Shown here in pieces: positions 3,479 through 30,058 of a stretch of DNA of 32,015 nt. The notes beneath the pieces were generated by a model, which worked only from the letters and a program-made list of their open reading frames with translations, made no database searches and was not told the origin of the DNA. Within the stretch, counting starts at the first letter, position 1, and each line of letters starts with the position of its first letter. Source of the stretch: a virus (taxonomy: Duplodnaviria; Heunggongvirae; Uroviricota; Caudoviricetes); the IMG/VR virus record IMGVR_UViG_2706794662_000017. One strand, 5' to 3'. The translations under genes and the position numbers were made by a program.

Positions 3479-3755
3479 NNNNNNNNNNNNNNNNNNNNNN
3501 NNNNNNNNNNNNNNNNNNNNNNNNNNNNNNNNNNNNNNNNNNNNNNNNNNNNNNNNNNNNNNNNNNNNNNNNNNNNNNNNNNNNNNNNNNNNNNNNNNNN
3601 NNNNNNNNNNNNNNNNNNNNNNNNNNNNNNNNNNNNNNNNNNNNNNNNNNNNNNNNNNNNNNNNNNNNNNNNNNNNNNNNNNNNNNNNNNNNNNNNNNNN
3701 NNNNNNNNNNNNNNNNNNNNNNNNNNNNNNNNNNNNNNNNNNNNNNNNNNNNNNN
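3479..3755. other. Run of N (277 nt, masked or unsequenced)
   Basis: Literal N characters; hides the orf83 end and the start of A. Confidence 1.
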
Positions 3756-5830
3756 TCCGGCGCAATAAAAGCCCGGTGCACGGGTTTTATTTCCTCACAT
3801 CCACTTTTCAGCGTCGTTTATGGCCGCGCATTGAGCGTGTGAATCAGCGCCATGAAATGAACACCGACGCGTCGATGCTGTTTCTGGCTGAGCGTGACCA
3901 CTATGCGCGCCTGCCGGGAATGAATGACAAGGAGCTGAAAAAGTTTGCCGCCCGTATCTCATCGCAGCTTTTCATGATGTATGAGGAACTCAGCGATGCC
4001 TGGGTGGATGCGCATGGCGAAAAAGAATCGCTGTTTACGGATGAGGCGCAGGCTCACCTCTATGGTCATGTTGCTGGCGCTGCACGTGCTTTCAATATTT
4101 CCCCTCTCTACTGGAAAAAATACCGTAAAGGACAGATGACCACGAGGCAGGCATATTCTGCCATTGCCCGTCTGTTTAACGATGAGTGGTGGATTAGTCA
4201 GCTTAAAGGCCAGCGTATGCGCTGGCATGAGGCGTTACTGATTGCTGTCGGGGAGGTCAATAAAGACCGTTCTCCTTATGCCAGTAAACATGCCATTCGT
4301 GATGTGCGTGCACGCCGCCAGGCAAATCTGGAATTTCTTAAATCGTGTGATCTCGAAAACAGGGAAACAGGCGAGCGCATCGACCTTATCAGTAAGGTGA
4401 TGGGCAGTATTTCTAATCCTGAAATTCGCCGGATGGAGCTGATGAACACCATTGCCGGTATTGAGCGTTACGCCGCCGCAGAAGGTGATGTGGGGATGTT
4501 TATCACGCTGACCGCGCCGTCAAAGTATCACCCGACACGTCAGGTTGGAAAAGGCGAAAGTAAAACCGTCCAGCTAAATCACGGCTGGAACGATGAGGCA
4601 TTTAATCCAAAGGATGCGCAGCGTTATCTCTGCCGTATCTGGAGCCTGATGCGCACGGCATTCAAGGATAATGATTTACAGGTCTACGGTTTGCGAGTCG
4701 TCGAGCCACACCACGACGGAACGCCGCACTGGCATATGATGCTTTTTTGTAATCCACGCCAGCGTAACCAGATTATCGAAATCATGCGTCGCTACGCGCT
4801 CAAAGAGGATGGCGACGAAAGAGGAGCTGCGCGAAACCGTTTTCAGGCAAAACATCTTAATCGGGGCGGTGCTGCGGGGTATATCGCGAAATACATCTCA
4901 AAAAATATCGACGGCTATGCACTGGATGGGCAGCTCGATAACGATAGCGGCAGACCGCTGAAAGATACTGCCGCGGCTGTTACCGCATGGGCGTCAACGT
5001 GGCGCATTCCGCAATTTAAAACGGTTGGCCTGCCGACAATGGGGGCTTACCGTGAACTACGCAAATTGCCTCGCGGCGTCAGCATTGCTGATGAGTTTGA
5101 CGAGCGCGTCGAGGCTGCACGCGCCGCCGCAGACAGTGGTGATTTTGCGCTGTATATCAGCGCGCAGGGTGGGGCAAATGTCCCGCGCGATTGTCAGACT
5201 GTCAGGGTCGCCCGTAGTCCGTCGGATGAAGTTAACGAGTACGAGGAAGAAGTCGAGAGAGTGGTCGGCATTTACGCGCCGCATCTCGGCGCGCGTCATA
5301 TTCATATCACCAGAACGACGGACTGGCGCATTGTTCCGAAAGTGCCGGTCGTTGAGCCTTTGACTTTAAAAAGCGGCATCGCCGCGCCTCGGAGTCCTGT
5401 CAATAACTGTGGAAAGCTCACTGGTGGTGATACTTCGTTACCGGCTCCCACACCTTCTGAGCACGCCGCAGCAGTGCTTAATCTGGTAGATGACGGTGTT
5501 ATCGAATGGAATGACCCGGAGGTTGTGAGGGCGCTCAGAGGTGCATTAAAACACGGACTGAGAAGACCAAACCGTCAGCAAAGAAACGGAAGCCCGTTAA
5601 AACCGCATGAAATAGCGCCATCGGCCAGACTGACCCGGTCGGAACGAATGCAAATTACCCGTATCCGCGTTGACCTTGCTCAGAACGGTATCAGGCCGCA
5701 GCGATGGGAGCTTGAGGTGCTGGCGCGTGGGGCAACCGTAAATTATGACGGGAAAAAATTCACTTACCCGCTCGCTGATGAGTGGTCGGGATTCTCAACA
5801 GTATTAGAGTCAAACTCAGTGAAGCGTTAA
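3545..5830 (+). CDS. A: Replication initiation protein A (P2 gpA-like rolling-circle nickase); start lies inside the masked region
   Basis: Readable portion 3756..5830 resembles P2 gpA as I recall it; HUH-type motif (TPHWHMM) and downstream tyrosine motif (YIAKYISK); start estimated assuming a P2-length protein and an exact-length N-run. Confidence 0.85.
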   Translation, partial: XXXXXXXXXXXXXXXXXXXXXXXXXXXXXXXXXXXXXXXXXXXXXXXXXXXXXXXXXXXXXXXXXXXXXXXRRNKSPVHGFYFLTSTFQRRLWPRIERVNQRHEMNTDASMLFLAERDHYARLPGMNDKELKKFAARISSQLFMMYEELSDAWVDAHGEKESLFTDEAQAHLYGHVAGAARAFNISPLYWKKYRKGQMTTRQAYSAIARLFNDEWWISQLKGQRMRWHEALLIAVGEVNKDRSPYASKHAIRDVRARRQANLEFLKSCDLENRETGERIDLISKVMGSISNPEIRRMELMNTIAGIERYAAAEGDVGMFITLTAPSKYHPTRQVGKGESKTVQLNHGWNDEAFNPKDAQRYLCRIWSLMRTAFKDNDLQVYGLRVVEPHHDGTPHWHMMLFCNPRQRNQIIEIMRRYALKEDGDERGAARNRFQAKHLNRGGAAGYIAKYISKNIDGYALDGQLDNDSGRPLKDTAAAVTAWASTWRIPQFKTVGLPTMGAYRELRKLPRGVSIADEFDERVEAARAAADSGDFALYISAQGGANVPRDCQTVRVARSPSDEVNEYEEEVERVVGIYAPHLGARHIHITRTTDWRIVPKVPVVEPLTLKSGIAAPRSPVNNCGKLTGGDTSLPAPTPSEHAAAVLNLVDDGVIEWNDPEVVRALRGALKHGLRRPNRQQRNGSPLKPHEIAPSARLTRSERMQITRIRVDLAQNGIRPQRWELEVLARGATVNYDGKKFTYPLADEWSGFSTVLESNSVKR

Positions 5831-5916
5831 CTCAATAAATATGAGTTTATAAGTTAGGCCTCGAGATTTTGTAGAAAGGGATGTATACTGAGTATCGTAT
5901 AGATTTGGAGTGAGTG

Positions 5917-6939
5917 ATGACTGTAAAGGTGATAGACCTTTTTTGTGGTGCTGGCGGATTAACTCATGGTTTGCAGCTTGCGGGGCTTGATGTCGTTGCA
6001 GGCATTGACCTTGAGGGGGAATGTAGGTTTCCCTATGAAAGAAACAATAAATCTAAGTTTATTGAGCAAGATATCGCTAAAGTAACAAAAGAGGAACTGC
6101 TGAGGCTTTATGGTGATGCGTCTGTAAAAGTATTGGCAGGATGCGCACCTTGCCAACCTTTTTCAAAATATACTCAAGGAAAAGATAAGGCTGATGATAA
6201 AAAATGGCCTCTTCTTTATGAGTTCGAACGTTTAATTCGCGAAGTATCTCCAGAAATCGTAACAATGGAGAACGTTCCTGATGTAACTAAACATAAAGTT
6301 TATAATGATTTTTATAATTCATTGTTAAAGTTGGGCTATTATGTTTGGGCGTCTAAGATTGATTGTGTCGAATATGGAATCCCACAAAACCGTTCCCGTC
6401 ATGTATTGTTGGCCTCAAAATTGGGGGCGATTGAGTTAGTAAAACGTGACGATGTTATTTTGAAAACAGTTAGAGATGCAATAGGAAATCTTCCTCCATT
6501 AGAAGATGGCCAAACAGATCCAAATGATATATTACATAGAGCCAGTAAATTAAATCCGATTAATAAAAAAAGAATTATACACTCTGTTCCTGGTGGTACA
6601 TGGAAGGACTGGCCGAAAGAGTTGGTTGCCGCTTGTCATATGAAATCCAGCGGTAAAGGGTATGCTAGTGTATATGGGCGCATGTCTTGGGATAAGCCAA
6701 GTCCAACAATTACAACTCTTTGTTATGGTTTCGGGAATGGGCGTTTTGGACATCCAGAACAGCATAGAGCGATTTCTCTTAGAGAGGCTGCTTTATTGCA
6801 AACTTTCCCGATGGATTATATTTTTGTAGAAGACAAAAACAAGTTTGTTATAAGAAGTATTGGGAAAATGATAGGTAATGCTGTTCCTGTGGAACTAGGA
6901 AAAGCAATTGGGCAATCAATCAAGAACCATTTAGAATGA
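5917..6939 (+). CDS. DNA (cytosine-5)-methyltransferase, complete, no adjacent restriction endonuclease recognised
   Basis: Motif I DLFCGAGG, motif IV PCQPFS (catalytic Cys), motif VI ENV, motif VIII QNRSR, motif X GNAVPV; ATG 5917 with GGAG 6 nt upstream; AT-rich relative to the phage backbone. Confidence 0.85.
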   Translation: MTVKVIDLFCGAGGLTHGLQLAGLDVVAGIDLEGECRFPYERNNKSKFIEQDIAKVTKEELLRLYGDASVKVLAGCAPCQPFSKYTQGKDKADDKKWPLLYEFERLIREVSPEIVTMENVPDVTKHKVYNDFYNSLLKLGYYVWASKIDCVEYGIPQNRSRHVLLASKLGAIELVKRDDVILKTVRDAIGNLPPLEDGQTDPNDILHRASKLNPINKKRIIHSVPGGTWKDWPKELVAACHMKSSGKGYASVYGRMSWDKPSPTITTLCYGFGNGRFGHPEQHRAISLREAALLQTFPMDYIFVEDKNKFVIRSIGKMIGNAVPVELGKAIGQSIKNHLE

Positions 6940-6945
6940 TAAAAT

Positions 6946-6962
6946 GGCCTGCTTTACAGGCC
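6946..6962. terminator. Hairpin GGCCTG-CTTTA-CAGGCC between convergent genes (possible bidirectional terminator)
   Basis: Perfect 6-bp stem with 5-nt loop, flanked by A/T-rich sequence, lying between the methyltransferase stop (6939) and the minus-strand gene stop (6969). Confidence 0.35.
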
Positions 6963-6968
6963 TTATAA

Positions 6969-7649
6969 CTATTGTTCTAAATATTCATTATTATTTATAT
7001 AGTGCTCTATATTATTCACGATAGCATCAAGATAGGCGATTACTTCTAATGAAATATTCTCTAAGTCCTGATATGAAACATTTTTTCCAATCTCAGCAAA
7101 TGATACATTGCCATGAGATAAATCATTACGATGTTGTTTAACAGTGGCTAATTTTTCACCATGTTTAGTGTGAGTGTAATCGGAATGTGTAGAAAAACCA
7201 TATATTTTCGATTTTTCTTTGATTTCCTCTCTATCAATATTTCCTGAGAATATTTTCTTTTTGTTGAACGTGCCATAAGATATACCGCAAGATATACCTT
7301 TGGTAAGGTGATTAACTAAACTTTCAACATTTACAGATTCATTTTTTAATCTTTTTAATATTTCTGACCTGAGATTTTTCCTGAGTTTGTCAAATTCTAC
7401 GTTTCTATCATAAATAGTCTCATGAATAAGGCAGATAGCTTCTCTCATTGTTGATTCAATGAGGTTATATAACAGTATATATACTGCTCCCTTTAGAGTT
7501 TTTCGTGATTGAGCAGTAATGGAGAACTTATGTTCTTTATCATCAGCTGATATCAGTTCTGCACCGGCATACTCAATAAATTTCAAAAGATCCAAATAGG
7601 CCAAGATCTCTCCTGACCTTTCGTCAAAATCCTCACGAAAACGATCCAT
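6969..7649 (-). CDS. Hypothetical 226-aa protein with C-terminal Rx4H motif (putative HEPN-like nuclease); second gene of a two-gene operon
   Basis: ATG 7647-7649 with AGAGGA RBS 5 nt upstream, located inside the 3' end of the upstream gene; R-N-D-L-S-H at residues 174-179 (nt 7113-7130); function is inferred from the motif only. Confidence 0.55.
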   Translation of the reverse strand: MDRFREDFDERSGEILAYLDLLKFIEYAGAELISADDKEHKFSITAQSRKTLKGAVYILLYNLIESTMREAICLIHETIYDRNVEFDKLRKNLRSEILKRLKNESVNVESLVNHLTKGISCGISYGTFNKKKIFSGNIDREEIKEKSKIYGFSTHSDYTHTKHGEKLATVKQHRNDLSHGNVSFAEIGKNVSYQDLENISLEVIAYLDAIVNNIEHYINNNEYLEQ

Positions 7650-7650
7650 G

Positions 7651-8793
7651 TTAATCCTCTAATAATTTATCCCGAACATATTCAATTCGTTCAATTACCT
7701 TCACGCGACTATTAGCTCCGTCGGAAGTGGTCAATCGTTTGAATTCTTCTGAGCTTAGCCAATCTAAGTTCTTGGGAACAAGGTCAGGGACTTCACGTAA
7801 TGCAAGTGCTGCGCCAACAGCGAGAGATTCGAATCTAACTCGAGGTGTAGATTTTGCAGTAATAGTTTTCTTGAATCCTGCTGGGAAATAGTTTTCAACA
7901 AAAGATAGAACATTAGCAAACTCTTGTTTCATTGAGTTTTGTTTAGTTTCGTCTATATCTCGATTTTCTGACATATAGTCATTTAGAAAATCCCGTACGG
8001 AATGATCAAAGTTCTTGTACTTATCTACGTAGGCAAAGAATCTTAATGTAAATTCTAACCGTTCATCTCGTTTTTCTTTAGTCTGAGATAAAGGTGCTAA
8101 TTCTTTAAATTTAGGTATTGTTGAGCATGGCTTAATAACCTGTGTATATAAATTTGTTGAACCAAGTTCTGATCCTTTACGGACTTCCATATCTTTCAAT
8201 ATATCGCTGCCAGAGTTAATACGCTCAAAAAGATCTCTACGGGTTTCTTCATTGCATTTAGAACTCAATTCTATAACGCGGACAGGAATTCTCATGAAAC
8301 GACGTTGACGTGATAATGGTAAATCTTGGAATTTGAAACCATTAAGGACGTCTAAAGATTTCAGGTCTTGTAAAACTAATTCATTTTGGATAAAAGCGTG
8401 TATAGTCCTAACTCGTTGTGAGCCATCAACAATCTCAATTCGCCCATCTAAATCGGGATCTTCGGAGAGAACATCTGCTATAAATATATATGGTATAGGA
8501 AAACCCAAAATCAAAGACTCTATCAATTTTGATTGTCTTTTTTCACTCCAAACAAAATCCCTTTGATAATCAGGAACAAAGAGTTCGTTAGTATCATCCT
8601 CTAATCCGTTATGATACTTATTAACTAATAACTCAACGGTAAATTCTTTGGTCTCAAAATCCACATCCTTTTGCTCAGCACGAATTTGCTCTTCAGCGTT
8701 TTGCTTTATCACCTCTAGCTGAGCAAGCAACTCTGCTCTTTTCTTGGCATTATCTTCATTTTCTAGTTGAGATTTTAAATCAATAATGTCCAT
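7651..8793 (-). CDS. DUF262 (ParB/Srx-like, GmrSD N-terminal-type) domain protein; first gene of a two-gene operon
   Basis: Signature motifs FVPDYQRDFVW, GFPIPYIF and IVDGSQRVRTI (DGQQR variant); preferred start ATG 8791-8793 with AGGGA RBS 7 nt upstream (the ORF track extends to a TTG at 8811); stop is 1 nt from the downstream gene start; no DUF1524/HNH-like C-terminal domain recognised. Confidence 0.75.
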   Translation of the reverse strand: MDIIDLKSQLENEDNAKKRAELLAQLEVIKQNAEEQIRAEQKDVDFETKEFTVELLVNKYHNGLEDDTNELFVPDYQRDFVWSEKRQSKLIESLILGFPIPYIFIADVLSEDPDLDGRIEIVDGSQRVRTIHAFIQNELVLQDLKSLDVLNGFKFQDLPLSRQRRFMRIPVRVIELSSKCNEETRRDLFERINSGSDILKDMEVRKGSELGSTNLYTQVIKPCSTIPKFKELAPLSQTKEKRDERLEFTLRFFAYVDKYKNFDHSVRDFLNDYMSENRDIDETKQNSMKQEFANVLSFVENYFPAGFKKTITAKSTPRVRFESLAVGAALALREVPDLVPKNLDWLSSEEFKRLTTSDGANSRVKVIERIEYVRDKLLED

Positions 8794-8978
8794 GTCTAGT
8801 TCCCTTAACAAGTGTTAAAAATTGAAGCGGATAGCATACCGCATAGATCATGAAAAATGCCATCATGTGCATGGATTTGCATGCGTCAGAAGTCGCTTTT
8901 ATTGTTAGTTATCACTAGCGCTGGCGTGCTCTTGGAGTGTTCATGCAACTGCATTAAAACCGCCCCATGAAGCGGGCG

Positions 8979-8997
8979 GGCGAGGCGGGGAAAGCAC
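8979..8997. other. cos: cos site, 19-nt cohesive-end sequence GGCGAGGCGGGGAAAGCAC
   Basis: Exact match to the P2 cohesive-end 19-mer as I recall it, located just upstream of Q where P2 cos lies. Confidence 0.6.
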
Positions 8998-9135
8998 TGC
9001 GCGCTGGCGGTGGTGCTGATTTTATTTTCCAGCGTCTCAGCGCGTCGTGACGGCGCTTAGTCTGCCCGTTGGGCGTTGGTGTGTCTGCGGGATTTTTTGT
9101 GCGGTGATGAGCGTGTGAGGGCGTGATGGCGGGGT

Positions 9136-9160
9136 GTAAAAAAGCCGCCCGCAGGCGGCG
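9136..9160 (-). terminator. Rho-independent terminator downstream of Q (minus strand)
   Basis: GC stem GCCGCC / GGCGGC (9144-9159) followed on the minus strand by a U-tract (plus-strand AAAAAA 9138-9143), directly 3' of the Q stop. Confidence 0.5.
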
Positions 9161-9164
9161 ATGT

Positions 9165-10199
9165 TCAGCCGTTGTCAGTGTCCAGTGAGTAGTTTTTAAA
9201 GCGGATGACCTCCTGACCGAGCCAGCCGTTTATCTCGCGGATCCTGTCCTGTAACGGGATAAGCTCATTGCGGACAAAGACCTTTGCCACTTTCTCAATA
9301 TCACCCAGCGACCCGACGTTCTCCGGCTTGCCCCCCATCAACTGAAAGGGGATGCGGTGCGCGTCCAGCAGGTCAGCGGCGCTGGCTTTTTTGATATTAA
9401 AAAAATCGTCCTTCGTTGCCACTTCACTGAGCGGGATAATTTTAATGCCGTCGGCTTTCCCCTGTGGGGCATAGAGAAACAGATTTTTAAAGTTATTGCG
9501 GCCTTTCGACTTAACCATGTTTTCGCGAAGCATTTCGATATCGTTGCGATCCTGCACGGCATCGGTGACGTACATGATGTATCCGGCATGTGCGCCGTTT
9601 TCGTAATACTTGCGGCGGAACAGCGTGGCCGACTCATTCAGCCATGCAGAGTTAAGGGCGCTGAGATATTCCGGCAGGCCGTACAGCTCCTGATTAATAT
9701 CAGGCTCCAGCAGGTGAAACACGGAGCCGGGCGCGAAGGCTGTCGGCTCGTTGAAGGACGGCACCCACCAGTAAACATCCTCCTCCACGCCACGACGGGT
9801 ATATTTGGCCGGTGAGGTTTCCAGTCTGATGACCTTACCGGTGGTGCTGTAACGCTTTTCCAGAAACGCATTACCGAACACCAGAAAATCCAGCACAAAA
9901 CGGCTGAAATCCTGCTGGGAAAGCCACGGGTGCGGGATAAACGTTGAAGCCAGAATATTACGTTTGACGTAAATCGGTGAGCTGTGATGCACGGCAGCAC
10001 GCAGGCTTTTTGCCAGACCGGTAAAGCTGACCGGCGGCTCATACCATCTGCCGTTACTGATGCACTCGACGTAATCCAGAATGTCACGGCGGTCGAGTAC
10101 CGGCACCGGCTCACCAAAGGTGAATGCTTCCATTTTCGGGGCGCTGGCGGTGATTGTTTTTGCCGCAGGTCGCGGTGTTTTCCCTTTTTTCTTGCTCAT
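9165..10199 (-). CDS. Q: Portal protein (P2 gpQ)
   Basis: 344 aa, near-identical to P2 gpQ as I recall it (MSKKKGKTP...SLDTDNG). Confidence 0.95.
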   Translation of the reverse strand: MSKKKGKTPRPAAKTITASAPKMEAFTFGEPVPVLDRRDILDYVECISNGRWYEPPVSFTGLAKSLRAAVHHSSPIYVKRNILASTFIPHPWLSQQDFSRFVLDFLVFGNAFLEKRYSTTGKVIRLETSPAKYTRRGVEEDVYWWVPSFNEPTAFAPGSVFHLLEPDINQELYGLPEYLSALNSAWLNESATLFRRKYYENGAHAGYIMYVTDAVQDRNDIEMLRENMVKSKGRNNFKNLFLYAPQGKADGIKIIPLSEVATKDDFFNIKKASAADLLDAHRIPFQLMGGKPENVGSLGDIEKVAKVFVRNELIPLQDRIREINGWLGQEVIRFKNYSLDTDNG

Positions 10200-17899: not shown

Positions 17900-18422
17900 G
17901 TTTAAGCGTTTTGAAGACAGGCTGACCGGACTTATTGAGTCGCTGTCACCGTCAGGGCGTCGGCGACTGAGCGCCGAACTGGCGAAACGTCTGCGTCAGA
18001 GTCAGCAGCGTCGGGTGATGGCACAGAAAGCCCCGGACGGCACACCCTACGCACCACGCCAGCAGCAGAGCGCCAGAAAAAAGACCGGTCGCGTTAAGCG
18101 AAAAATGTTTGCGAAACTTATCACCAGTCGTTTTTTGCATATCCNNNNNNNNNNNNNNNNNNNNNNNNNNNNNNNNNNNNNNNNNNNNNNNNNNNNNNNN
18201 NNNNNNNNNNNNNNNNNNNNNNNNNNNNNNNNNNNNNNNNNNNNNNNNNNNNNNNNNNNNNNNNNNNNNNNNNNNNNNNNNNNNNNNNNNNNNNNNNNNN
18301 NNNNNNNNNNNNNNNNNNNNNNNNNNNNNNNNNNNNNNNNNNNNNNNNNNNNNNNNNNNNNNNNNNNNNNNNNNNNNNNNNNNNNNNNNNNNNNNNACCC
18401 GGCGGCATCCTTCCCGTTATGA
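17892..18422 (+). CDS. S: Tail completion protein S (P2 gpS); 3' part inside masked region
   Basis: N-terminal 84 aa readable and gpS-like; reading frame continues through the N-run to a stop overlapping the V start (ATGA); the true end could lie inside the N-run. Confidence 0.7.
   Translation: MNEFKRFEDRLTGLIESLSPSGRRRLSAELAKRLRQSQQRRVMAQKAPDGTPYAPRQQQSARKKTGRVKRKMFAKLITSRFLHIXXXXXXXXXXXXXXXXXXXXXXXXXXXXXXXXXXXXXXXXXXXXXXXXXXXXXXXXXXXXXXXXXXXXXXXXXXXXXXXXXXXXXPAASFPL
18145..18396. other. Run of N (252 nt, masked or unsequenced)
   Basis: Literal N characters inside S and upstream of V. Confidence 1.
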
Positions 18423-20844: not shown

Positions 20845-23163
20845 ATGAGCACAAAATTCAGAACCGTTATCACCACTGCCGGTGCAGCAAAGCTGGCAGC
20901 GGCAACCGCACCGGGAGGGCGGAAGGTCAACATTACCACGATGGCCGTCGGGGATGGCGGTGGTAAATTGCCTGTCCCGGATGCCGGACAGACCGGGCTT
21001 ATCCACGAAGTCTGGCGACATACGCTGAACAAAATCAGCCAGGACAAACGAAACAGTAATTATATTATCGCAGAGCTGGTTATTCCGCCGGAGGTGGGCG
21101 GTTTCTGGATGCGTGAGCTTGGCCTGTACGATGATGCGGGAACGTTAATTGCCGTGGCGAACATGGCCGAAAGTTATAAGCCAGCTCTTGCCGAAGGCTC
21201 AGGGCGTTCGCAGACCTGTCGCATGGTCATCATCGTCAGCAGTGTGGCCTCGGTGGAGCTGACCATTGACACCACAACGGTGATGGCGACACAGGATTAC
21301 GTTGATGACAAAATTGCAGAGCACGAACAGTCACGACGTCACCCGGACGCCTCGCTGACCGCAAAAGGTTTTACTCAGTTAAGCAGTGCGACCAACAGCA
21401 CGTCTGAAACACTGGCCGCAACGCCGAAAGCGGTAAAGGCCGCCTATGACCTTGCTAACGGGAAATATACCGCACAGGACGCTACCACAGCTCGAAAAGG
21501 TCTTGTCCAGCTCAGTAGTGCCACCAACAGCACGTCTGAAACGCTTGCGGCAACGCCAAAGGCGGTTAAGACAGCGTATGACCTTGCTAACGGGAAATAC
21601 ACTGCACAGGACGCCACTACAGCGCGAAAAGGTCTTGTCCAGCTCAGTAGCGCCACCAACAGCGATTCTGAAACGCTTGCGGCAACACCAAAGGCGGTTA
21701 AGACAGCGTATGACCTTGCTAACGGGAAATACACTGCACAGGATGCCACCACAGCGCGAAAAGGTCTTGTCCAGCTAAGTAGTGCCATCAACAGCGATTC
21801 TGAAACGCTGGCCGCAACGCCAAAAGCAGTGAAGTCTGCCTATGACAATGCTGAAAAACGTCTTCAGAAAGATCAGAACGGTGCGGATATTCCGGGAAAG
21901 GATACCTTCACGAAAAATATCGGTGCCTGTCGTGCTTATAGCGGCGCTTTGAGCACTGAAGCCGGAAACTGGACAACCGCTCAGTTTATTGAATGGCTGG
22001 ATTCCCGTGGTGCATTTAATCATCCGTACTGGATGTGCAAAGGCTCCTGGTCATATGCAAATAACAAAATCATTACGGATACCGGATGTGGTGATATCCA
22101 CCTGGCTGGTTGTGTCGTCGAGGTCATGGGAACTAAATCTGCAATCACTATCCGAGTGACCACGCCAACAACATCAAGCGGTGGCGGTACAACCAGCGCG
22201 CAATTCACTTACATAAATCATGGGGACGGCTACTCCCCCGGCTGGCGTCGTGACTGGAATCGTCAGGGCGACTCAATGACCGGAACGATTAATCAGGATG
22301 GCGGAAGCCAGAATGCCTATATGTCTACGGCCTTATGTTCAGGCACCAGAGGCGGCAAAAAATATCTCAGAAAGTTTCGTGGTGGAGAAGGAGATACTAT
22401 CTGGCATGAAACAGTTCAGGGCGGGGTAATTCGCTGGGCGACAGGAAACAATGACGCTCAGGAAGAATTATCACTCAGCTCCGCTTATGGTCTCCGTTCA
22501 AGAGGTGAAATTACATCACTCAGTGCTAATGGTCTGCGCATTGCTTATGGCAATTATGGATTCTTTATCAGGAATGATGGCGGCAGCACATATTTAATGC
22601 TGACGGCCTCTGGCGATAAATTTGGGACATGGAACGGCTTAAGACCGCTGACTATCAATAACGCCAATGGCGGAGTGTCAATGGGGCATGGCCTGAGTGT
22701 TACAGGTGATATTGTCTCAAGTACCAAAGTACGTGCCGGTAGCGGGAAAAAGTTCACGGTCAGCAGCAGCAATACATCCACGAAGGAAGCCGCATTCAAT
22801 TTGTGGGGAAACTCAAGTCGTCCTGTGGTGGCTGAATTAGGTGATGATGCAGGCTGGCATTTTTACAGTCAGAGAAATACAGATAACAGCATCACTTTTG
22901 CTGTTAACGGGCAGGTATCACCATCTAACTATGGCAACTTTGATTCACGCTATGTCCGGGATATCCGGCTTGGTGGTGCTGCCACATACAAACCTGCGAA
23001 CAATGGTATGACATGGACACATCAGGCACCGTCCGGGTGTGTATATTCCGGCATTATTGTTCAGGATACCGGCTCAAACTCTGCCGATAACATTGGTGGC
23101 GTATATTACAGACCGGTGCAGAAATACATTAACGGGACTTGGTATAACGTGGCACAGGTATAA
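20845..23163 (+). CDS. H: Tail fibre protein (P2 gpH-like) with internal tandem repeats
   Basis: 772 aa; conserved gpH-like N-terminus (MSTKFRTVITTAGAAKLAAATAPGG); repeat block in the middle and a C-terminal region I do not recognise from P2. Confidence 0.9.
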   Translation: MSTKFRTVITTAGAAKLAAATAPGGRKVNITTMAVGDGGGKLPVPDAGQTGLIHEVWRHTLNKISQDKRNSNYIIAELVIPPEVGGFWMRELGLYDDAGTLIAVANMAESYKPALAEGSGRSQTCRMVIIVSSVASVELTIDTTTVMATQDYVDDKIAEHEQSRRHPDASLTAKGFTQLSSATNSTSETLAATPKAVKAAYDLANGKYTAQDATTARKGLVQLSSATNSTSETLAATPKAVKTAYDLANGKYTAQDATTARKGLVQLSSATNSDSETLAATPKAVKTAYDLANGKYTAQDATTARKGLVQLSSAINSDSETLAATPKAVKSAYDNAEKRLQKDQNGADIPGKDTFTKNIGACRAYSGALSTEAGNWTTAQFIEWLDSRGAFNHPYWMCKGSWSYANNKIITDTGCGDIHLAGCVVEVMGTKSAITIRVTTPTTSSGGGTTSAQFTYINHGDGYSPGWRRDWNRQGDSMTGTINQDGGSQNAYMSTALCSGTRGGKKYLRKFRGGEGDTIWHETVQGGVIRWATGNNDAQEELSLSSAYGLRSRGEITSLSANGLRIAYGNYGFFIRNDGGSTYLMLTASGDKFGTWNGLRPLTINNANGGVSMGHGLSVTGDIVSSTKVRAGSGKKFTVSSSNTSTKEAAFNLWGNSSRPVVAELGDDAGWHFYSQRNTDNSITFAVNGQVSPSNYGNFDSRYVRDIRLGGAATYKPANNGMTWTHQAPSGCVYSGIIVQDTGSNSADNIGGVYYRPVQKYINGTWYNVAQV
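21364..21852 (+). repeat. Tandem in-frame repeat inside H, ~3.7 copies of a 132-nt (44-aa) unit
   Basis: Unit starts at 21364, 21496, 21628 and 21760; encodes K/RGxxQLSSATNSxSETLAATPKAVKxAYDLANGKYTAQDATTA (phage tail-fibre repeat type). Confidence 0.85.
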
Positions 23164-23166
23164 TTT

Positions 23167-23694
23167 ATGCAGCATTTGATAAATATAACGGCAGGTAATC
23201 CAAAAACGGTTGAACAATATCAATTGACAAAGGACTTTGATGTTGTCTGGTTTTTTTCAGAAGATGGTAAGAACTGGTACGAAGAACAAAAGTATTTTGC
23301 TGATGACACGATAAAAATAGCGTACGACAAAGATAATATTATCCGCTATGTGGAAAAGGATGTGACAGCTATCAGACCGGATGGATTAAGTGTTGTTGAA
23401 GTGCCGGATATTACTGCTAACCGACGGGCGGACATTTCAGGGAACTGGATGTTTAAGGACTGTACAGTGATTAAACGAATTTATACGGCAGAGGAATTGC
23501 AGCAGCAGGCAGAAAATCGGAAAGCCAGACTTCTTGCAGATGCTGAATCCGTGATTTTGCCGCTGGAGCGCGCTGTCAGGCTGAATATGGCAACAGATGA
23601 GGAGCGCAGTCGACTGGAGGCATGGGAACGCTACAGTGTTCTGGTCAGTCGTGTGGATCCTGCAAATCCTGAATGGCCGGAAATGCCGCAATAA
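23167..23694 (+). CDS. G: Tail fibre assembly chaperone (P2 gpG)
   Basis: 175 aa; N- and C-termini (MQHL..., ...[13 protein letters not shown]) match P2 gpG as I recall it. Confidence 0.85.
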
Positions 23695-23808: not shown

Positions 23809-25227
23809 CTACATCGGGCTCTTATATGGGGAATGAGAGTTTTTGAAACGCGGTTCTTCATGCTTCGGACTGTAAATTCTTGCATGATTATCTATCACAA
23901 CTTTACTTCCAAGAATATCTCGAGCTTCTCCTAACGACCACACAGTAGAAAGATCATTAGTCAAATTTCGATAGAGAGCACGAAACCCCTTGGGTTTTTT
24001 AAGATCATATAAGAAATCAGGAACTTTAACTTTAAAATTAAAGGTCGGTAGTTTCGGAAGGGAATTAATAGCCGCAACAGTATTGTATACATGTACAAGC
24101 TTAGTTACAGGTACACCTTGTCTAGTCTTGAGCCCATACTTAGTTCGAATATAATCTGATTCTTTCGATACTTCAGTAAGCAATGCTCTTACTGACTTAT
24201 TAGCTTGAGGCAATTCATTTTCATCAAACAAGCGCTTTATTTCTCGCATTTTCTCACGGGCCCTTACAAATTCGTTGTTGTCCCTTATGTTATAAGCAGC
24301 TTCAACAATACAACTTGGATCACCAGTTTCTTTTGCGAGCCATGCCGAAAATAAAGGAAGCGAAGTTGCTGTTGCTACAGCTTTACCACCAGAATGAATA
24401 TCAATGAGATCATGACTTAACGAAGTGGAAAAGTTTTCTACAATATGTTTAGCATAGTCAAAACCATACTGACAGTTTTGGCTTAAATATGTCTGTTGAT
24501 ACGCCTGACGTAATGGATATAAAAAAGTATCTGCTTGAAGGTACTTAGCTGTGAGAGAATAAAATACTGCCCGATTAGCCAGCCATACAAGCGAAGCCAC
24601 GAATGCTTTGATTGCATCTGATGCTTCACCAGCAGATGTGCCATCCCCCCATTTTGCTCCGGGAACTTTGTACCCCTTGCGAATAGGGTTGCCAAATCGA
24701 TCGAGAAGTTCAACATCGCCATTTGTTCTATTACCAGACTCAGCAGCATCACGCAGTTCTGAAAAAATGGCAGCAGCAATGTTACCATATTTTTCAAACT
24801 CCTTACCTCCATCAGATAAGTTCTTCAGTGTTAGATGATAAACACTTGAACTAATGTCCCATGTACATATGATATGTGTCTGAAGAAGTTCAATTAGTTT
24901 TTTAAAATCGTCATTAACAAATGTTCCACCACGAATTTTAGGTTTCAATGCATCAGATATTTTTTTTGCTTCACTTTCAATTTCATCCAACCCATATTGT
25001 GCTTTATCAAGAAATAATATCTCTCTGAAACTTGAAATCCTACTCCCACGGTACTCTGGAATATAATCATCAACCGCGATAACGTGATCATAGAACAAAA
25101 TAGACTGTATATAGTTCTCAAATGCTATTATGTCTGTATCTACTGAGTCCTTCGATCTTGTTTTTACTTTCCCCTCGATTCTTTGGACTGCAGTTAGAGT
25201 TGAATTATCAATCAGTGCGTATGTCAT
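23809..25227 (-). CDS. Hypothetical 472-aa protein, AT-rich cargo gene at the P2 Z/fun variable locus; function unknown
   Basis: Long uninterrupted minus-strand ORF antisense to both flanking late operons; ATG 25225-25227 with AAGGAA RBS 5 nt upstream; no P2 structural counterpart; no catalytic motif recognised with confidence. Confidence 0.7.
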   Translation of the reverse strand: MTYALIDNSTLTAVQRIEGKVKTRSKDSVDTDIIAFENYIQSILFYDHVIAVDDYIPEYRGSRISSFREILFLDKAQYGLDEIESEAKKISDALKPKIRGGTFVNDDFKKLIELLQTHIICTWDISSSVYHLTLKNLSDGGKEFEKYGNIAAAIFSELRDAAESGNRTNGDVELLDRFGNPIRKGYKVPGAKWGDGTSAGEASDAIKAFVASLVWLANRAVFYSLTAKYLQADTFLYPLRQAYQQTYLSQNCQYGFDYAKHIVENFSTSLSHDLIDIHSGGKAVATATSLPLFSAWLAKETGDPSCIVEAAYNIRDNNEFVRAREKMREIKRLFDENELPQANKSVRALLTEVSKESDYIRTKYGLKTRQGVPVTKLVHVYNTVAAINSLPKLPTFNFKVKVPDFLYDLKKPKGFRALYRNLTNDLSTVWSLGEARDILGSKVVIDNHARIYSPKHEEPRFKNSHSPYKSPM

Positions 25228-25637: not shown

Positions 25638-26828
25638 ATGAGTGACTATCATCACGGCGTGCAGGTGCTGGAGATTAACGACGGCACCCGCGTCATTTCC
25701 ACCGTATCCACTGCCATTGTCGGCATGGTCTGCACGGCCAGCGATGCGGATGCGGAAACCTTCCCCCTCAATAAACCGGTGCTGATTACCAATGTGCAGA
25801 GCGCAATTGCAAAGGCCGGTAAAAAAGGCACGCTGGCGGCATCGTTGCAGGCCATCGCCGACCAGTCAAAACCGGTCACCGTTGTCGTGCGTGTGGAAGA
25901 CGGCACCGGCGACGACGAGGAAACGAAACTCGCGCAGACCGTTTCCAATATCATCGGCACCACCGACGAAAACGGTCAGTACACCGGACTGAAAGCCCTG
26001 CTGGCGGCGGAGTCGGTAACCGGTGTTAAACCGCGTATTCTCGGCGTGCCGGGACTGGACACCAAAGAGGTGGCTGTTGCACTGGCATCAGTCTGTCAGA
26101 AGCTGCGCGCTTTCGGGTATATCAGCGCATGGGGCTGTAAGACCGTTTCCGAGGTGAAAGCCTACCGTCAGAATTTCAGCCAGCGTGAGCTGATGGTCAT
26201 CTGGCCGGATTTCCTCGCATGGGATACGGTCGCCAGTACCACCGCCACCGCGTATGCCACCGCCCGTGCGCTGGGTCTGCGCGCTAAAATCGACCAGGAG
26301 CAGGGCTGGCATAAAACGCTGTCCAACGTCGGGGTGAACGGTGTTACCGGCATCAGCGCGTCCGTATTCTGGGATTTGCAGGAGTCCGGCACCGATGCTG
26401 ACCTGCTTAACGAGTCAGGCGTCACAACGCTGATTCGCCGTGACGGTTTCCGCTTCTGGGGTAACCGTACCTGCTCTGATGACCCGCTGTTCCTCTTTGA
26501 AAACTACACCCGCACCGCGCAGGTGCTGGCCGACACGATGGCTGAGGCGCACATGTGGGCGGTGGACAAGCCCATCACCGCAACGCTGATTCGCGACATC
26601 GTTGACGGCATCAATGCCAAATTCCGTGAGCTGAAAACAAACGGCTATATCGTGGATGCGACCTGCTGGTTCAGCGAAGAATCCAACGATGCGGAAACCC
26701 TCAAGGCCGGAAAACTGTATATCGACTACGACTATACCCCGGTGCCTCCTCTTGAAAACCTGACCCTGCGCCAGCGTATTACCGATAAATACCTGGCAAA
26801 TCTGGTCACCTCGGTTAACAGCAATTAA
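25638..26828 (+). CDS. FI: Tail sheath protein (P2 gpFI)
   Basis: 396 aa, P2 gpFI size and position. Confidence 0.95.
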   Translation: MSDYHHGVQVLEINDGTRVISTVSTAIVGMVCTASDADAETFPLNKPVLITNVQSAIAKAGKKGTLAASLQAIADQSKPVTVVVRVEDGTGDDEETKLAQTVSNIIGTTDENGQYTGLKALLAAESVTGVKPRILGVPGLDTKEVAVALASVCQKLRAFGYISAWGCKTVSEVKAYRQNFSQRELMVIWPDFLAWDTVASTTATAYATARALGLRAKIDQEQGWHKTLSNVGVNGVTGISASVFWDLQESGTDADLLNESGVTTLIRRDGFRFWGNRTCSDDPLFLFENYTRTAQVLADTMAEAHMWAVDKPITATLIRDIVDGINAKFRELKTNGYIVDATCWFSEESNDAETLKAGKLYIDYDYTPVPPLENLTLRQRITDKYLANLVTSVNSN

Positions 26829-27843: not shown

Positions 27844-30058
27844 CAATGTAAAATTACAGGTATTGCTCAGGGCTGTTGACCAGGCGTCCCGCCCGTTTAA
27901 ATCCATCCGCAGAGCGAGTAAGTTGCTGTCGGGGGATATCCGGGAAACACAAAAATCACTGCGCGAGCTGAACGGTCACGCATCCCGTATTGAGGGATTC
28001 CGCAAGACCAGTGCACAGCTCGCCGTGACTGGTCATGCACTTGAAAAGGCACGGCAGGAGGCCGAAGCCCTTGCCACACAGTTTAAAAACACCGAACGCC
28101 CGACCCGTGCTCAGGCGAAAGTGCTGGAATCCGCAAAGCGTGCGGCGGAGGACTTACAGGCGAAATATAACCGCCTGACAGATTCCGTTAAACGCCAGCA
28201 GCGGGAACTGGCCGCTGTGGGAATTAATACCCGCAATCTTGCACATGATGAGCAGGGACTGAAAAACCGTATCAGTGAAACCACCGCCCAGCTTAACCGG
28301 CAGCGTGACGCGCTGGCGCGTGTCAGTGCGCAACAGGCAAAACTTAACGCAGTCAAACAGCGTTATCAGGCCGGAAAGGAACTGGCCGGAAATATGGCCT
28401 CAGTGGGCGCTGCCGGTGTGGGGATTGCTGCTGCGGGAACGATAGCCGGAGTTAAGCTGCTGATGCCAGGTTATGAGTTTGCGCAGAAAAACTCAGAATT
28501 GCAGGCTGTGCTCGGTGTGGCAAAAGACTCCGCCGAAATGGCTGCACTCCGCAAGCAGGCGCGCCAGCTCGGTGACAACACCGCCGCCTCAGCGGATGAT
28601 GCGGNNNNNNNNNNNNNNNNNNNNNNNNNNNNNNNNNNNNNNNNNNNNNNNNNNNNNNNNNNNNNNNNNNNNNNNNNNNNNNNNNNNNNNNNNNNNNNNN
28701 NNNNNNNNNNNNNNNNNNNNNNNNNNNNNNNNNNNNNNNNNNNNNNNNNNNNNNNNNNNNNNNNNNNNNNNNNNNNNNNNNNNNNNNNNNNNNNNNNNNN
28801 NNNNNNNNNNNNNNNNNNNNNNNNNNNNNNNNNNNNNNNNNNNNNNNNNNNNNNAGAAATGCAGGCCAGCTTTGAGAAAAACCGGCTCGGTACTGCCCAG
28901 CAGGCCGAATACATGAAAACCATTTTCGGGGAGGAGGCCAGCTCAGCCGCCGCTGTGCTGATGACTGCCGCGTCAACCGGAAAGCTGGACAAACTGACCG
29001 CTGCGTTTAAAGCCTCAGACGGGAAGACCGCAGAGCTGGTAAATATCATGCAGGACAACCTCGGCGGTGACTTTAAGGAGTTTCAGTCCGCTTATGAGGC
29101 GGTGGGGACAGACCTGTTTGACCAGCAGGAAGGCGCGCTACGTAAGCTCACGCAGACGGCCACAAAGTATGTGTTAAAACTCGACGGCTGGGTACAGAAA
29201 AACAAATCACTGGCGTCAACCATTGGCCTCATTGCCGGTGGCGCGCTGGCGCTGACTGGCATCATCGGTGCAATTGGTCTTGTAGCCTGGCCGGTTATCA
29301 CCGGCATCAATGCCATCATCGCGGCAGCAGGCGCAATGGGGGCAATCTTCACGACGGTTGGTAGTGCCGTTATGACGGCCATCGGGGCGATTAGCTGGCC
29401 GGTTGTGGCTGTGGTGGCCGCCATTGTCGCCGGGGCGTTGCTTATCCGTAAATACTGGGAGCCTGTCAGCGCATTCTTTGGCGGTGTGGTTGAAGGGCTG
29501 AAAGCGGCATTTGCGCCGGTGGGGGAGCTGTTCACGCCACTGAAACCGGTGTTTGACTGGCTGGGCGAAAAGTTACAGGCTGCGTGGCAGTGGTTTAAAA
29601 ACCTGATTGCCCCGGTCAAAGCCACCCAGGACACCCTGAACCGTTGCCGTGACACGGGCGTCATGTTCGGGCAGGCACTGGCTGACGCGCTGATGCTGCC
29701 GCTTAATGCGTTCAACAAATTGCGCAGCGGCATTGACTGGGTACTGGAAAAGCTCGGGGTCATCAACAAAGAGTCAGACACACTTGACCAGACCGCCGCC
29801 AGAACTCATGCCGCCACGTATGGCACCGGTGGTTATATTCCGGCGACCAGCTCTTATGCAGGCTATCAGGCTTATCAGCCGGTCACGGCACCGGCTGGCC
29901 GCTCTTATGTGGACCAGAGTAAAAACGAATATCACATCAGCCTGACGGGTGGTACTGCACCGGGGACACAGCTTGACCGCCAGTTACAGGATGCGCTCGA
30001 AAAATACGAGCGGGATAAACGTGCGCGCGCCCGTGCCAGCATGATGCATGACGGTTAA
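27836..30058 (+). CDS. T: Tail tape measure protein (P2 gpT); internal 250-nt masked region
   Basis: 740-codon ORF; coiled-coil-rich N-terminus and Gly/Ala-rich hydrophobic central region; frame maintained across the N-run. Confidence 0.9.
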   Translation: MSNNVKLQVLLRAVDQASRPFKSIRRASKLLSGDIRETQKSLRELNGHASRIEGFRKTSAQLAVTGHALEKARQEAEALATQFKNTERPTRAQAKVLESAKRAAEDLQAKYNRLTDSVKRQQRELAAVGINTRNLAHDEQGLKNRISETTAQLNRQRDALARVSAQQAKLNAVKQRYQAGKELAGNMASVGAAGVGIAAAGTIAGVKLLMPGYEFAQKNSELQAVLGVAKDSAEMAALRKQARQLGDNTAASADDAXXXXXXXXXXXXXXXXXXXXXXXXXXXXXXXXXXXXXXXXXXXXXXXXXXXXXXXXXXXXXXXXXXXXXXXXXXXXXXXXXXXXEMQASFEKNRLGTAQQAEYMKTIFGEEASSAAAVLMTAASTGKLDKLTAAFKASDGKTAELVNIMQDNLGGDFKEFQSAYEAVGTDLFDQQEGALRKLTQTATKYVLKLDGWVQKNKSLASTIGLIAGGALALTGIIGAIGLVAWPVITGINAIIAAAGAMGAIFTTVGSAVMTAIGAISWPVVAVVAAIVAGALLIRKYWEPVSAFFGGVVEGLKAAFAPVGELFTPLKPVFDWLGEKLQAAWQWFKNLIAPVKATQDTLNRCRDTGVMFGQALADALMLPLNAFNKLRSGIDWVLEKLGVINKESDTLDQTAARTHAATYGTGGYIPATSSYAGYQAYQPVTAPAGRSYVDQSKNEYHISLTGGTAPGTQLDRQLQDALEKYERDKRARARASMMHDG
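28605..28854. other. Run of N (250 nt, masked or unsequenced)
   Basis: Literal N characters inside T. Confidence 1.

Follow-up and report, generated by a model that had tools for sequence, protein, structure and literature searches.

The DNA analysed here, a stretch of 32,015 nucleotides that we refer to as the window (IMG/VR record IMGVR_UViG_2706794662_000017), is a P2-like (Peduovirus-type) prophage with the gene order int-C-cox-...-A, cargo, cos-Q-P. The cargo consists of three genes that code for a C5-cytosine DNA methyltransferase (5917-6939, + strand), a HEPN protein (6969-7649, - strand) and a DUF262 protein (7651-8793, - strand). In the following, we argue that the methyltransferase very probably functions together with its two neighbors rather than as an orphan enzyme.

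The three genes have a G+C content of 0.34-0.37, as opposed to approximately 0.55 in the phage backbone, and they fill the slot between P2 gene A and cos/portal gene Q. The description of this region as a cargo island in an earlier note on the same DNA is borne out by both properties. On the left, an integrase gene (1-1011, -) next to a C-type repressor is followed by cox and the early operon (+) up to the gene for replication endonuclease A, which ends at 5830. On the right lie the genes for portal Q (9165-10199, -) and then terminase P. The conserved right-hand border of the slot is marked by an exact copy of the P2 cos (cohesive-end) 19-mer, GGCGAGGCGGGGAAAGCAC, at 8980-8998 (+). The surrounding flank (~8855-9164) is also conserved and common to ~2,170 of 5,426 complete E. 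coli genomes. With variable genes between A and portal Q, the cargo belongs to P2 defence hotspot 1 as described by Vassallo et al. 2022 and Rousset et al. 2022. Experiments have established that P2-like prophages store anti-phage systems in this slot (PMC9519451). The hotspot paper by Rousset et al. mentions neither a methyltransferase nor DUF262 nor a DUF262/HEPN/methyltransferase cargo.

The methyltransferase open reading frame (ORF) spans 5914/5917-6939 (+). A GGAG sequence at 5908-5911 lies five bases 5' of the ATG at 5917, which is also the start annotated for homologues in RefSeq records (340 residues). Pfam family PF00145 aligns to residues 5-337 over positions 2-323 of its 324-position model (E = 3.4e-58, 198 bits, cut-off 22), and the NCBIfam model TIGR00675 (dcm) is matched with 130 bits (cut-off 100.65). 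Of the PADLOC models, DrmMII (302 bits) and MTase_II (296 bits) fit best. All expected motifs follow in canonical order: motif I (DLFCGAGG, residues 7-14, 5935-5958) for binding of S-adenosylmethionine; motif IV (GCAPCQPFS, 6139-6165) with the catalytic Cys79 (codon 6151-6153); motif VI (ENV, residues 118-120, 6268-6276); motif VIII (QNRSR, residues 157-161, 6385-6399); the target-recognition region (residues ~165-283, 6409-6765); and finally the stretch at 6766-6891 that runs from motif IX (RAISLREAALLQTFP, residues 284-298) through motif X (GNAVPV, residues 320-325). Motifs I, IV, VI, VIII, IX and X are invariant across 15 relatives with 60-87% identity. The earlier claim of a complete enzyme with its motifs in order is thus correct. 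Judged from its sequence, this protein is an ordinary, intact member of a known C5-methyltransferase family. An identical protein occurs on 754 Enterobacteriaceae contigs, and proteins identical to those of the module are found on roughly 680-800 contigs each. The P2-like prophages that carry the module reside in E. coli, Shigella, Salmonella and Klebsiella.

The other two genes converge on the methyltransferase gene. Between the convergent stop codons lies a hairpin with a stem of 6-7 bp (GGCCTG...CAGGCC, 6946-6962). It folds with -10.8 kcal/mol (z = -2.7) when read on the + strand and with -12.3 kcal/mol (z = -3.5) when read on the - strand, and a terminator scan scored it as terminator-like on the - strand only. 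Both the convergent arrangement and the hairpin had been pointed out before, and the folding energies support the latter. The DUF262 stop codon is 1 nucleotide away from the HEPN start, which suggests that these two genes form an operon.

The HEPN protein (226 residues) belongs to the MAE_28990 family and is a predicted RNase effector. It matches both HEPN families PF18735 and PF18737, the latter with E = 5.8e-29 and 102 bits. The Rx4H motif (RNDLSH, 7113-7130, -) contributes Arg174 and His179, which are invariant in 15 homologues together with Tyr61, Asn62 and Glu65 of an N-terminal YNxxE motif. None of the PADLOC models, PD-T4-2_B included, matches this protein at E <= 0.01, and a PDB profile search with the HEPN alignment returned no meaningful match.

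The DUF262 protein (380 residues, 7651-8793) is a ParB-like nucleoside triphosphatase (NTPase) of the DUF262/GmrSD_N family (PF03235, E = 8e-26) and a predicted DNA sensor. The longest ORF starts from a TTG at 8811; RefSeq homologues start at the ATG at 8793. The motifs PDYQR (8560-8574, -) and DGSQR (8413-8427, -) are of the ParB/DGQQR NTPase type and are invariant among relatives. Among PADLOC models, the protein matches NsnA over its full length (183.6 bits) and PD-T4-2_A with 120 bits. By the domain analysis of the Menshen study, the full-length NsnA match suggests a ParB-DUF262 domain followed by a helical ParBDB DNA-binding domain. In the AlphaFold model (predicted local distance difference test score 85), the N-terminal domain is of the alpha/beta type, and the C-terminal half is helical throughout. 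Fold searches against the PDB with this model gave weak matches throughout (best E = 0.014), headed by ParB CTPase domains and BrxU; none reached E <= 0.001, none was a nuclease fold, and no identification of the C-terminal domain emerged. The sole hint of a restriction nuclease comes from the N-terminal domain, which the PADLOC model REase_II matches weakly (E = 9e-6). The Pfam scan found no DUF1524/HNH domain in the pair and no recognised restriction-endonuclease fold in either neighbor, in agreement with the earlier statement that no restriction endonuclease gene adjoins the methyltransferase. This locus is not a classical Type II restriction-modification system either, as the same scan identified no adjoining endonuclease of the PD-(D/E)XK, HNH, GIY-YIG or phospholipase D type.

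The earlier note had left open whether the methyltransferase is an orphan or tied to the DUF262/HEPN pair. Gene neighborhoods were examined starting from either gene, each locus set being the top 80 among more than 500 matches. The scan with the methyltransferase covered one genome per species and gave 80 loci with 55-86% identity. Neighboring genes were found by naive ORF calling and clustering, and then annotated with Pfam and PADLOC. At 15 of these 80 best loci, HEPN and DUF262 genes follow directly downstream in the convergent arrangement of the window. In 35 cases the partner is (Vsr) + DrmD + DrmMI, which corresponds to class 1 DISARM; in about 12 it is a paraMORC3-type GHKL protein of ~650 residues, in four a DrmA-like helicase, and 14 loci have no recognised partner. 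The 15 loci with HEPN and DUF262 come from Tatumella, Kluyvera, several Halomonadaceae (Halomonas), Neptuniibacter, Acinetobacter, Marinobacter, Pelistega, a betaproteobacterial metagenome-assembled genome and the cyanobacterium Caldora. Beyond the three genes, the flanking sequences of these loci are unrelated. The triad thus occurs in Gamma- and Betaproteobacteria and in a cyanobacterium, in prophage and non-prophage settings. Among complete E. coli genomes, the cargo is present in 9 of 5,426, each time with all three genes. Phage P24B2 and other P2/186-like prophages contain more distant methyltransferases (71-73% identity) with diverged HEPN and DUF262 partners of their own. Two further features were seen among the 80 best loci. 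The closest non-enterobacterial relatives of the methyltransferase (L019, L022, L027, L038, L044 and ~30 others) sit directly upstream of (Vsr) + DrmD + DrmMI, and a short HTH_17 gene (cluster c10) lies 5' of the methyltransferase gene at six loci, among them the DISARM-linked L066, L067 and L074.

For the reverse search, a DUF262 query alignment was built from triads, and 160 loci (80 from metagenomes and 80 from IMG/VR, the latter highly redundant) with 41-100% identity were collected. Hidden Markov models of the three triad proteins were run over all ORFs, and methyltransferases scoring at least 400 bits, an arbitrary threshold, were counted as members of the same family. In 156 of these 160 loci, the DUF262 gene is followed by a HEPN gene. 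A methyltransferase of the same family adjoins the pair in 125 loci and is cut by the contig end in another 6. Six loci contain a C5-methyltransferase of a different family instead (PF00145; two of them fused to Vsr), three have no methyltransferase despite adequate flanks on both sides, and 20 have a flank too short to judge. Hence, 125 of approximately 140 informative loci combine the pair with a methyltransferase of this family, and the six replacements are all C5-cytosine enzymes, never adenine methyltransferases. The coexistence of methyltransferase and DUF262 module, which the earlier note considered unusual, is the rule for this DUF262/HEPN subfamily.

The triad occurs in two gene orders. 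One is the convergent order of the window; the other is a co-directional order (methyltransferase-DUF262-HEPN), found at 30 metagenome loci and on one viral contig. Where co-directional loci were checked, as for L139-L141, the overlaps between the genes amount to 14 and 26 nucleotides. Dereplication left 79 triads with less than 90% identity, in which the identities of DUF262 and HEPN proteins covary with r = 0.83. The covariation between methyltransferase and DUF262 is weaker (r = 0.42), and 0 of 999 permutations in a Mantel test on the 79 triads reached this value. In a rough neighbor-joining tree, calculated without support values, methyltransferases linked to triads, to DISARM and to paraMORC3 are interleaved. 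By these sequence comparisons, the methyltransferase appears to be a module that has been swapped among effectors.

These data allow us to weigh the possibility that the enzyme is a solitary anti-restriction or epigenetic methyltransferase of a P2-like phage that shares its slot with an independent pair. Solitary phage-borne methyltransferases are common, and in the window the gene is convergent with the pair and not co-transcribed with it. It also lies on the same strand as gene A and 3' of it. A scan for terminator-like sites 3' of gene A found none, so that read-through from the early operon, and hence expression early in lytic growth, may be possible. The intergenic region between the gene A stop and the methyltransferase start (5831-5916, +) holds the GGAG sequence and a weak sigma-70-like site (TCGAGA-17-TATACT, 5861-5889) that matches 9 of 12 positions; such sites are no more common here than in shuffled sequences. 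However, an orphan that shares the slot with an unrelated pair cannot explain the near-obligate linkage found in both search directions. The non-phage contexts, the distribution over distant phyla, the overlapping co-directional genes, the co-inheritance of methyltransferase and DUF262, and the full set of genes in all nine cargo-bearing E. coli genomes likewise count against it. We strongly disfavor this explanation and consider it very improbable. Of the two options in the earlier note, the tie to the pair is strongly favored by the comparative data. We assign a probability of roughly 0.85 to 0.9 to the conclusion that the methyltransferase is a functional component of a methyltransferase/DUF262/HEPN triad.

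A module of this composition has been predicted before. Table 1 of Anantharaman, Makarova, Burroughs, Koonin and Aravind 2013 lists an operon of MAE_28990-HEPN, ParB (DUF262) and DNA methylase (PMC3710099). The agreement extends to the MAE_28990 HEPN domain with its Rx4-6H motif, the adjoining ParB-like DUF262 protein, the DNA methyltransferase as a neighbor across taxa, and the bacterial, restriction-modification-linked setting; we found all of these features in the triads described here. The 2013 entry is a single table line derived from gene-neighborhood analysis, with no experiment, name or specificity attached. The present analysis adds a quantification of the linkage, a definition of two gene orders, and the placement of the module in a P2 prophage hotspot. 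In the literature searched, no paper besides PMC3710099 uses the MAE_28990 family name.

Comparison with characterised defence systems revealed partial similarities. PD-T4-2 from E. coli ECOR65 (Vassallo et al. 2022) is a two-gene system of DUF262 and a HEPN protein (RiboL-PSP-type) that acts against T4. It differs by the absence of a methyltransferase, and the window DUF262 protein scores higher against NsnA. We rejected the assignment of the pair to PD-T4-2, as the A model was matched with 120 bits but the B component was not. Menshen (NsnABC) shares the DUF262 protein, which matches NsnA over its full length; the window contains a HEPN gene in place of the NsnB ABC-ATPase and the NsnC effector. 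As there is no ATPase gene or NsnC-type third gene within 5831-8860, Menshen was also rejected. The authors of the Menshen study noted solitary methyltransferases beside some of their loci and raised the question of whether unmodified DNA may be the target of DUF262. Class 1 DISARM as found in Serratia sp. SCBI includes an accessory DrmMII, the best PADLOC model for the window methyltransferase, and DISARM methylation at MTCGAK is reported to reduce DNA targeting. In contrast to DISARM loci, the window cargo contains no drmA, drmB, drmC, drmD or drmMI. GmrSD, BrxU and SspE share with the window protein an N-terminal ParB-like DUF262 NTPase domain with a DGQQR-type motif, and BrxU is among the top, albeit weak, fold matches. 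Unlike the window protein, these are DUF262-DUF1524 enzymes, in which an HNH nuclease is a fused or separate partner of DUF262; they are modification-dependent or phosphorothioate-sensing and not paired with a C5-methyltransferase; the window protein matches GmrSD_N only, and its helical C-terminal half has no nuclease match.

Two other phages illustrate what else can occupy this slot. Peduovirus P24B2 (NC_049387, 4001-6902; our locus L242), an isolated P2-like phage, carries a second triad lineage in the same position, with 73, 45 and 29% identity to the window for methyltransferase, DUF262 and HEPN, respectively. Escherichia phage PhiR44_1 (PV340563, 4004-7052; L243) carries in the P2 slot a methyltransferase ("Dcm") with 55% identity and a convergent effector. 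This effector is not a DUF262/HEPN pair but a paraMORC3 protein, a GHKL ATPase fused to a Shedu-related nuclease of the restriction-endonuclease fold. At one and the same hotspot, the methyltransferase family is thus combined with another kind of effector.

How might the triad work? The intact methyltransferase, the HEPN Rx4H motif, the DGQQR-type NTPase motifs and the near-obligate linkage of the three genes from either gene suggest a mechanism reminiscent of restriction-modification. In this proposal, the methyltransferase would place 5-methylcytosine on a short motif across the DNA of the lysogen, the prophage included, as a mark of self. The DUF262 protein, with its ParB-type NTPase and C-terminal helical domain, would bind DNA and read its cytosine-methylation state at the expense of nucleoside triphosphate hydrolysis. 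Upon encounter with unmethylated incoming DNA, it would activate the co-translated HEPN RNase, which would cut RNA and thereby block phage growth, possibly through abortive infection. We consider this complete scheme, with 5-methylcytosine as self mark, DUF262 as sensor and HEPN as effector, to have somewhat better than even odds.

Three propositions within this scheme are inferred, namely that methylation signals self and keeps the system from firing, that the effector is HEPN and not DUF262, and that the module has a role in phage defence. The first of these propositions is supported indirectly, because the same methyltransferase family partners class 1 DISARM and paraMORC3. Methylation by DrmMI and DrmMII has been reported as an off switch of class 1 DISARM (bioRxiv 10.1101/2021.12.28.474362), and paraMORC3 proteins have been described as linked to restriction-modification (PMC2292703). 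We more tentatively suggest, with odds well short of even, that the triad represents an immune system with a non-DNase restriction arm, in which a ParB-type NTPase reads the methylation state of cytosines and switches on a HEPN RNase. On this view, given that C5-methyltransferase families are exchanged, always for another C5 family, the sensor would read 5-methylcytosine status instead of a fixed site.

Several observations count against a self-marking methyltransferase on which the pair depends. The characterised DUF262 enzymes sense modified and not unmodified DNA: GmrSD and BrxU recognize modified cytosines, and SspE recognizes phosphorothioate. PD-T4-2, a related DUF262 and HEPN pair, defends against T4 without a methyltransferase, which means that DUF262/HEPN pairs need none in principle. 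Metagenome loci L113 (5914-7814), L110 and L148 have an intact pair with no methyltransferase within ~5 kb. In the triad of P24B2, the pair is intact while the methyltransferase gene has a +1 frameshift near residue 226, which may be either a sequencing error or a natural knockout. One would not expect such loci if a lack of methylation made the pair lethal. In addition, the result of the DUF262 search applies to this particular DUF262 subfamily, because the query was built from triads, and a literature search returned no paper that names or experimentally tests the three-gene module. As to L113, the pair is flanked by very large genes on the same strand (1392, 595, 1331 and 402 residues, one with a Helicase_C domain), so that it is possibly nested in a larger system.

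Some of these points would fit the opposite polarity. By analogy with SspE, 5-methylcytosine in host DNA could be the signal that the DUF262 NTPase requires for its activation or positioning, and the pair without a methyltransferase would be inert instead of toxic. That the modified cytosines on which GmrSD and BrxU act include 5-methylcytosine, and that phosphorothioate sensing by SspE triggers its NTPase, is consistent with this idea, as are the few loci that keep an intact pair with an absent or frameshifted methyltransferase. The exclusive use of C5 enzymes as replacements (6 of 6) would also suit a 5-methylcytosine reader. On the other hand, the window pair lacks the DUF1524/HNH domain of SspE, GmrSD and BrxU, and the same methyltransferase family serves in class 1 DISARM, where methylation is the reported off switch, and also has links to nucleases of the paraMORC3 type. 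We therefore rate a methylation-activated pair as unlikely.

The purpose of the triad could also differ from defence. Like many restriction-modification systems, the module could chiefly stabilise the prophage by post-segregational killing, with defence as a secondary function or none at all. The methyltransferase/effector composition and the tight linkage fit this explanation equally well, and the module is cargo on a mobile element. Yet the A-Q slot is an established anti-phage reservoir (PMC9519451), collinear triads occur in non-viral metagenome contigs, and each component has relatives in validated defence systems. A role primarily in addiction appears rather improbable to us, and we continue to favor the restriction-modification-like defence outlined above.

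Which sequence the methyltransferase may recognize was approached from several sides. Its target-recognition region is conserved to the same degree as the catalytic core, with 55-63% identity to triad-, DISARM- and paraMORC3-linked relatives. This conservation suggests that the members of the family share one target. A PDB sequence search found no characterised match to the target-recognition region. The attempt to derive the recognition sequence from the PDB relatives M.HaeIII (E = 8e-22), DNMT1 and M.HhaI failed, as the similarity is confined to the catalytic core. A literature search for a methylome of this methyltransferase found nothing, and site counts in the window (TCGA, CCWGG and the like) gave no clue to the target. 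The DrmMII of class 1 DISARM in Serratia sp. SCBI is reported to methylate cytosine at MTCGAK (bioRxiv 10.1101/2021.12.28.474362). We treat this motif as a lead only.

Outside the A-Q slot, the window contains runs of N at 3479-3755, 18145-18396 and 28605-28854 (277, 252 and 250 bases) that interrupt the orf82-like/A region, the tail gene S and the tape-measure region. Apparent dips in G+C content at ~3.5, 18.2 and 28.7 kb are caused by these runs and were ruled out as additional cargo. A second low-GC island (G+C ~0.38) contains an ORF of 472 residues (23809-25227, -) between the tail-fibre genes (20845-23694) and the sheath gene FI (25638-26828). In P2 terms, this corresponds to the Z/fun position, which is hotspot 2 in Vassallo et al. 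2022. Since the encoded protein has no match in Pfam, PADLOC or NCBIfam, it is an unannotated candidate defence gene.

From its sequence relationships, the three-gene module in the window is of the kind that was computationally predicted in 2013, and its methyltransferase is very probably not an orphan. One family of C5-methyltransferases would provide the self-marking component for at least three effector sets, namely DISARM, paraMORC3/Shedu-like nucleases and DUF262-HEPN pairs. If the proposed mechanism is true, the triad would tie DNA methylation to an RNase effector by way of a ParB-like NTPase, such that methylation gates an RNA-targeting and possibly abortive response. Lysogens with this prophage would then have an additional 5-methylcytosine methylome and an additional barrier to phage therapy and plasmid transfer.

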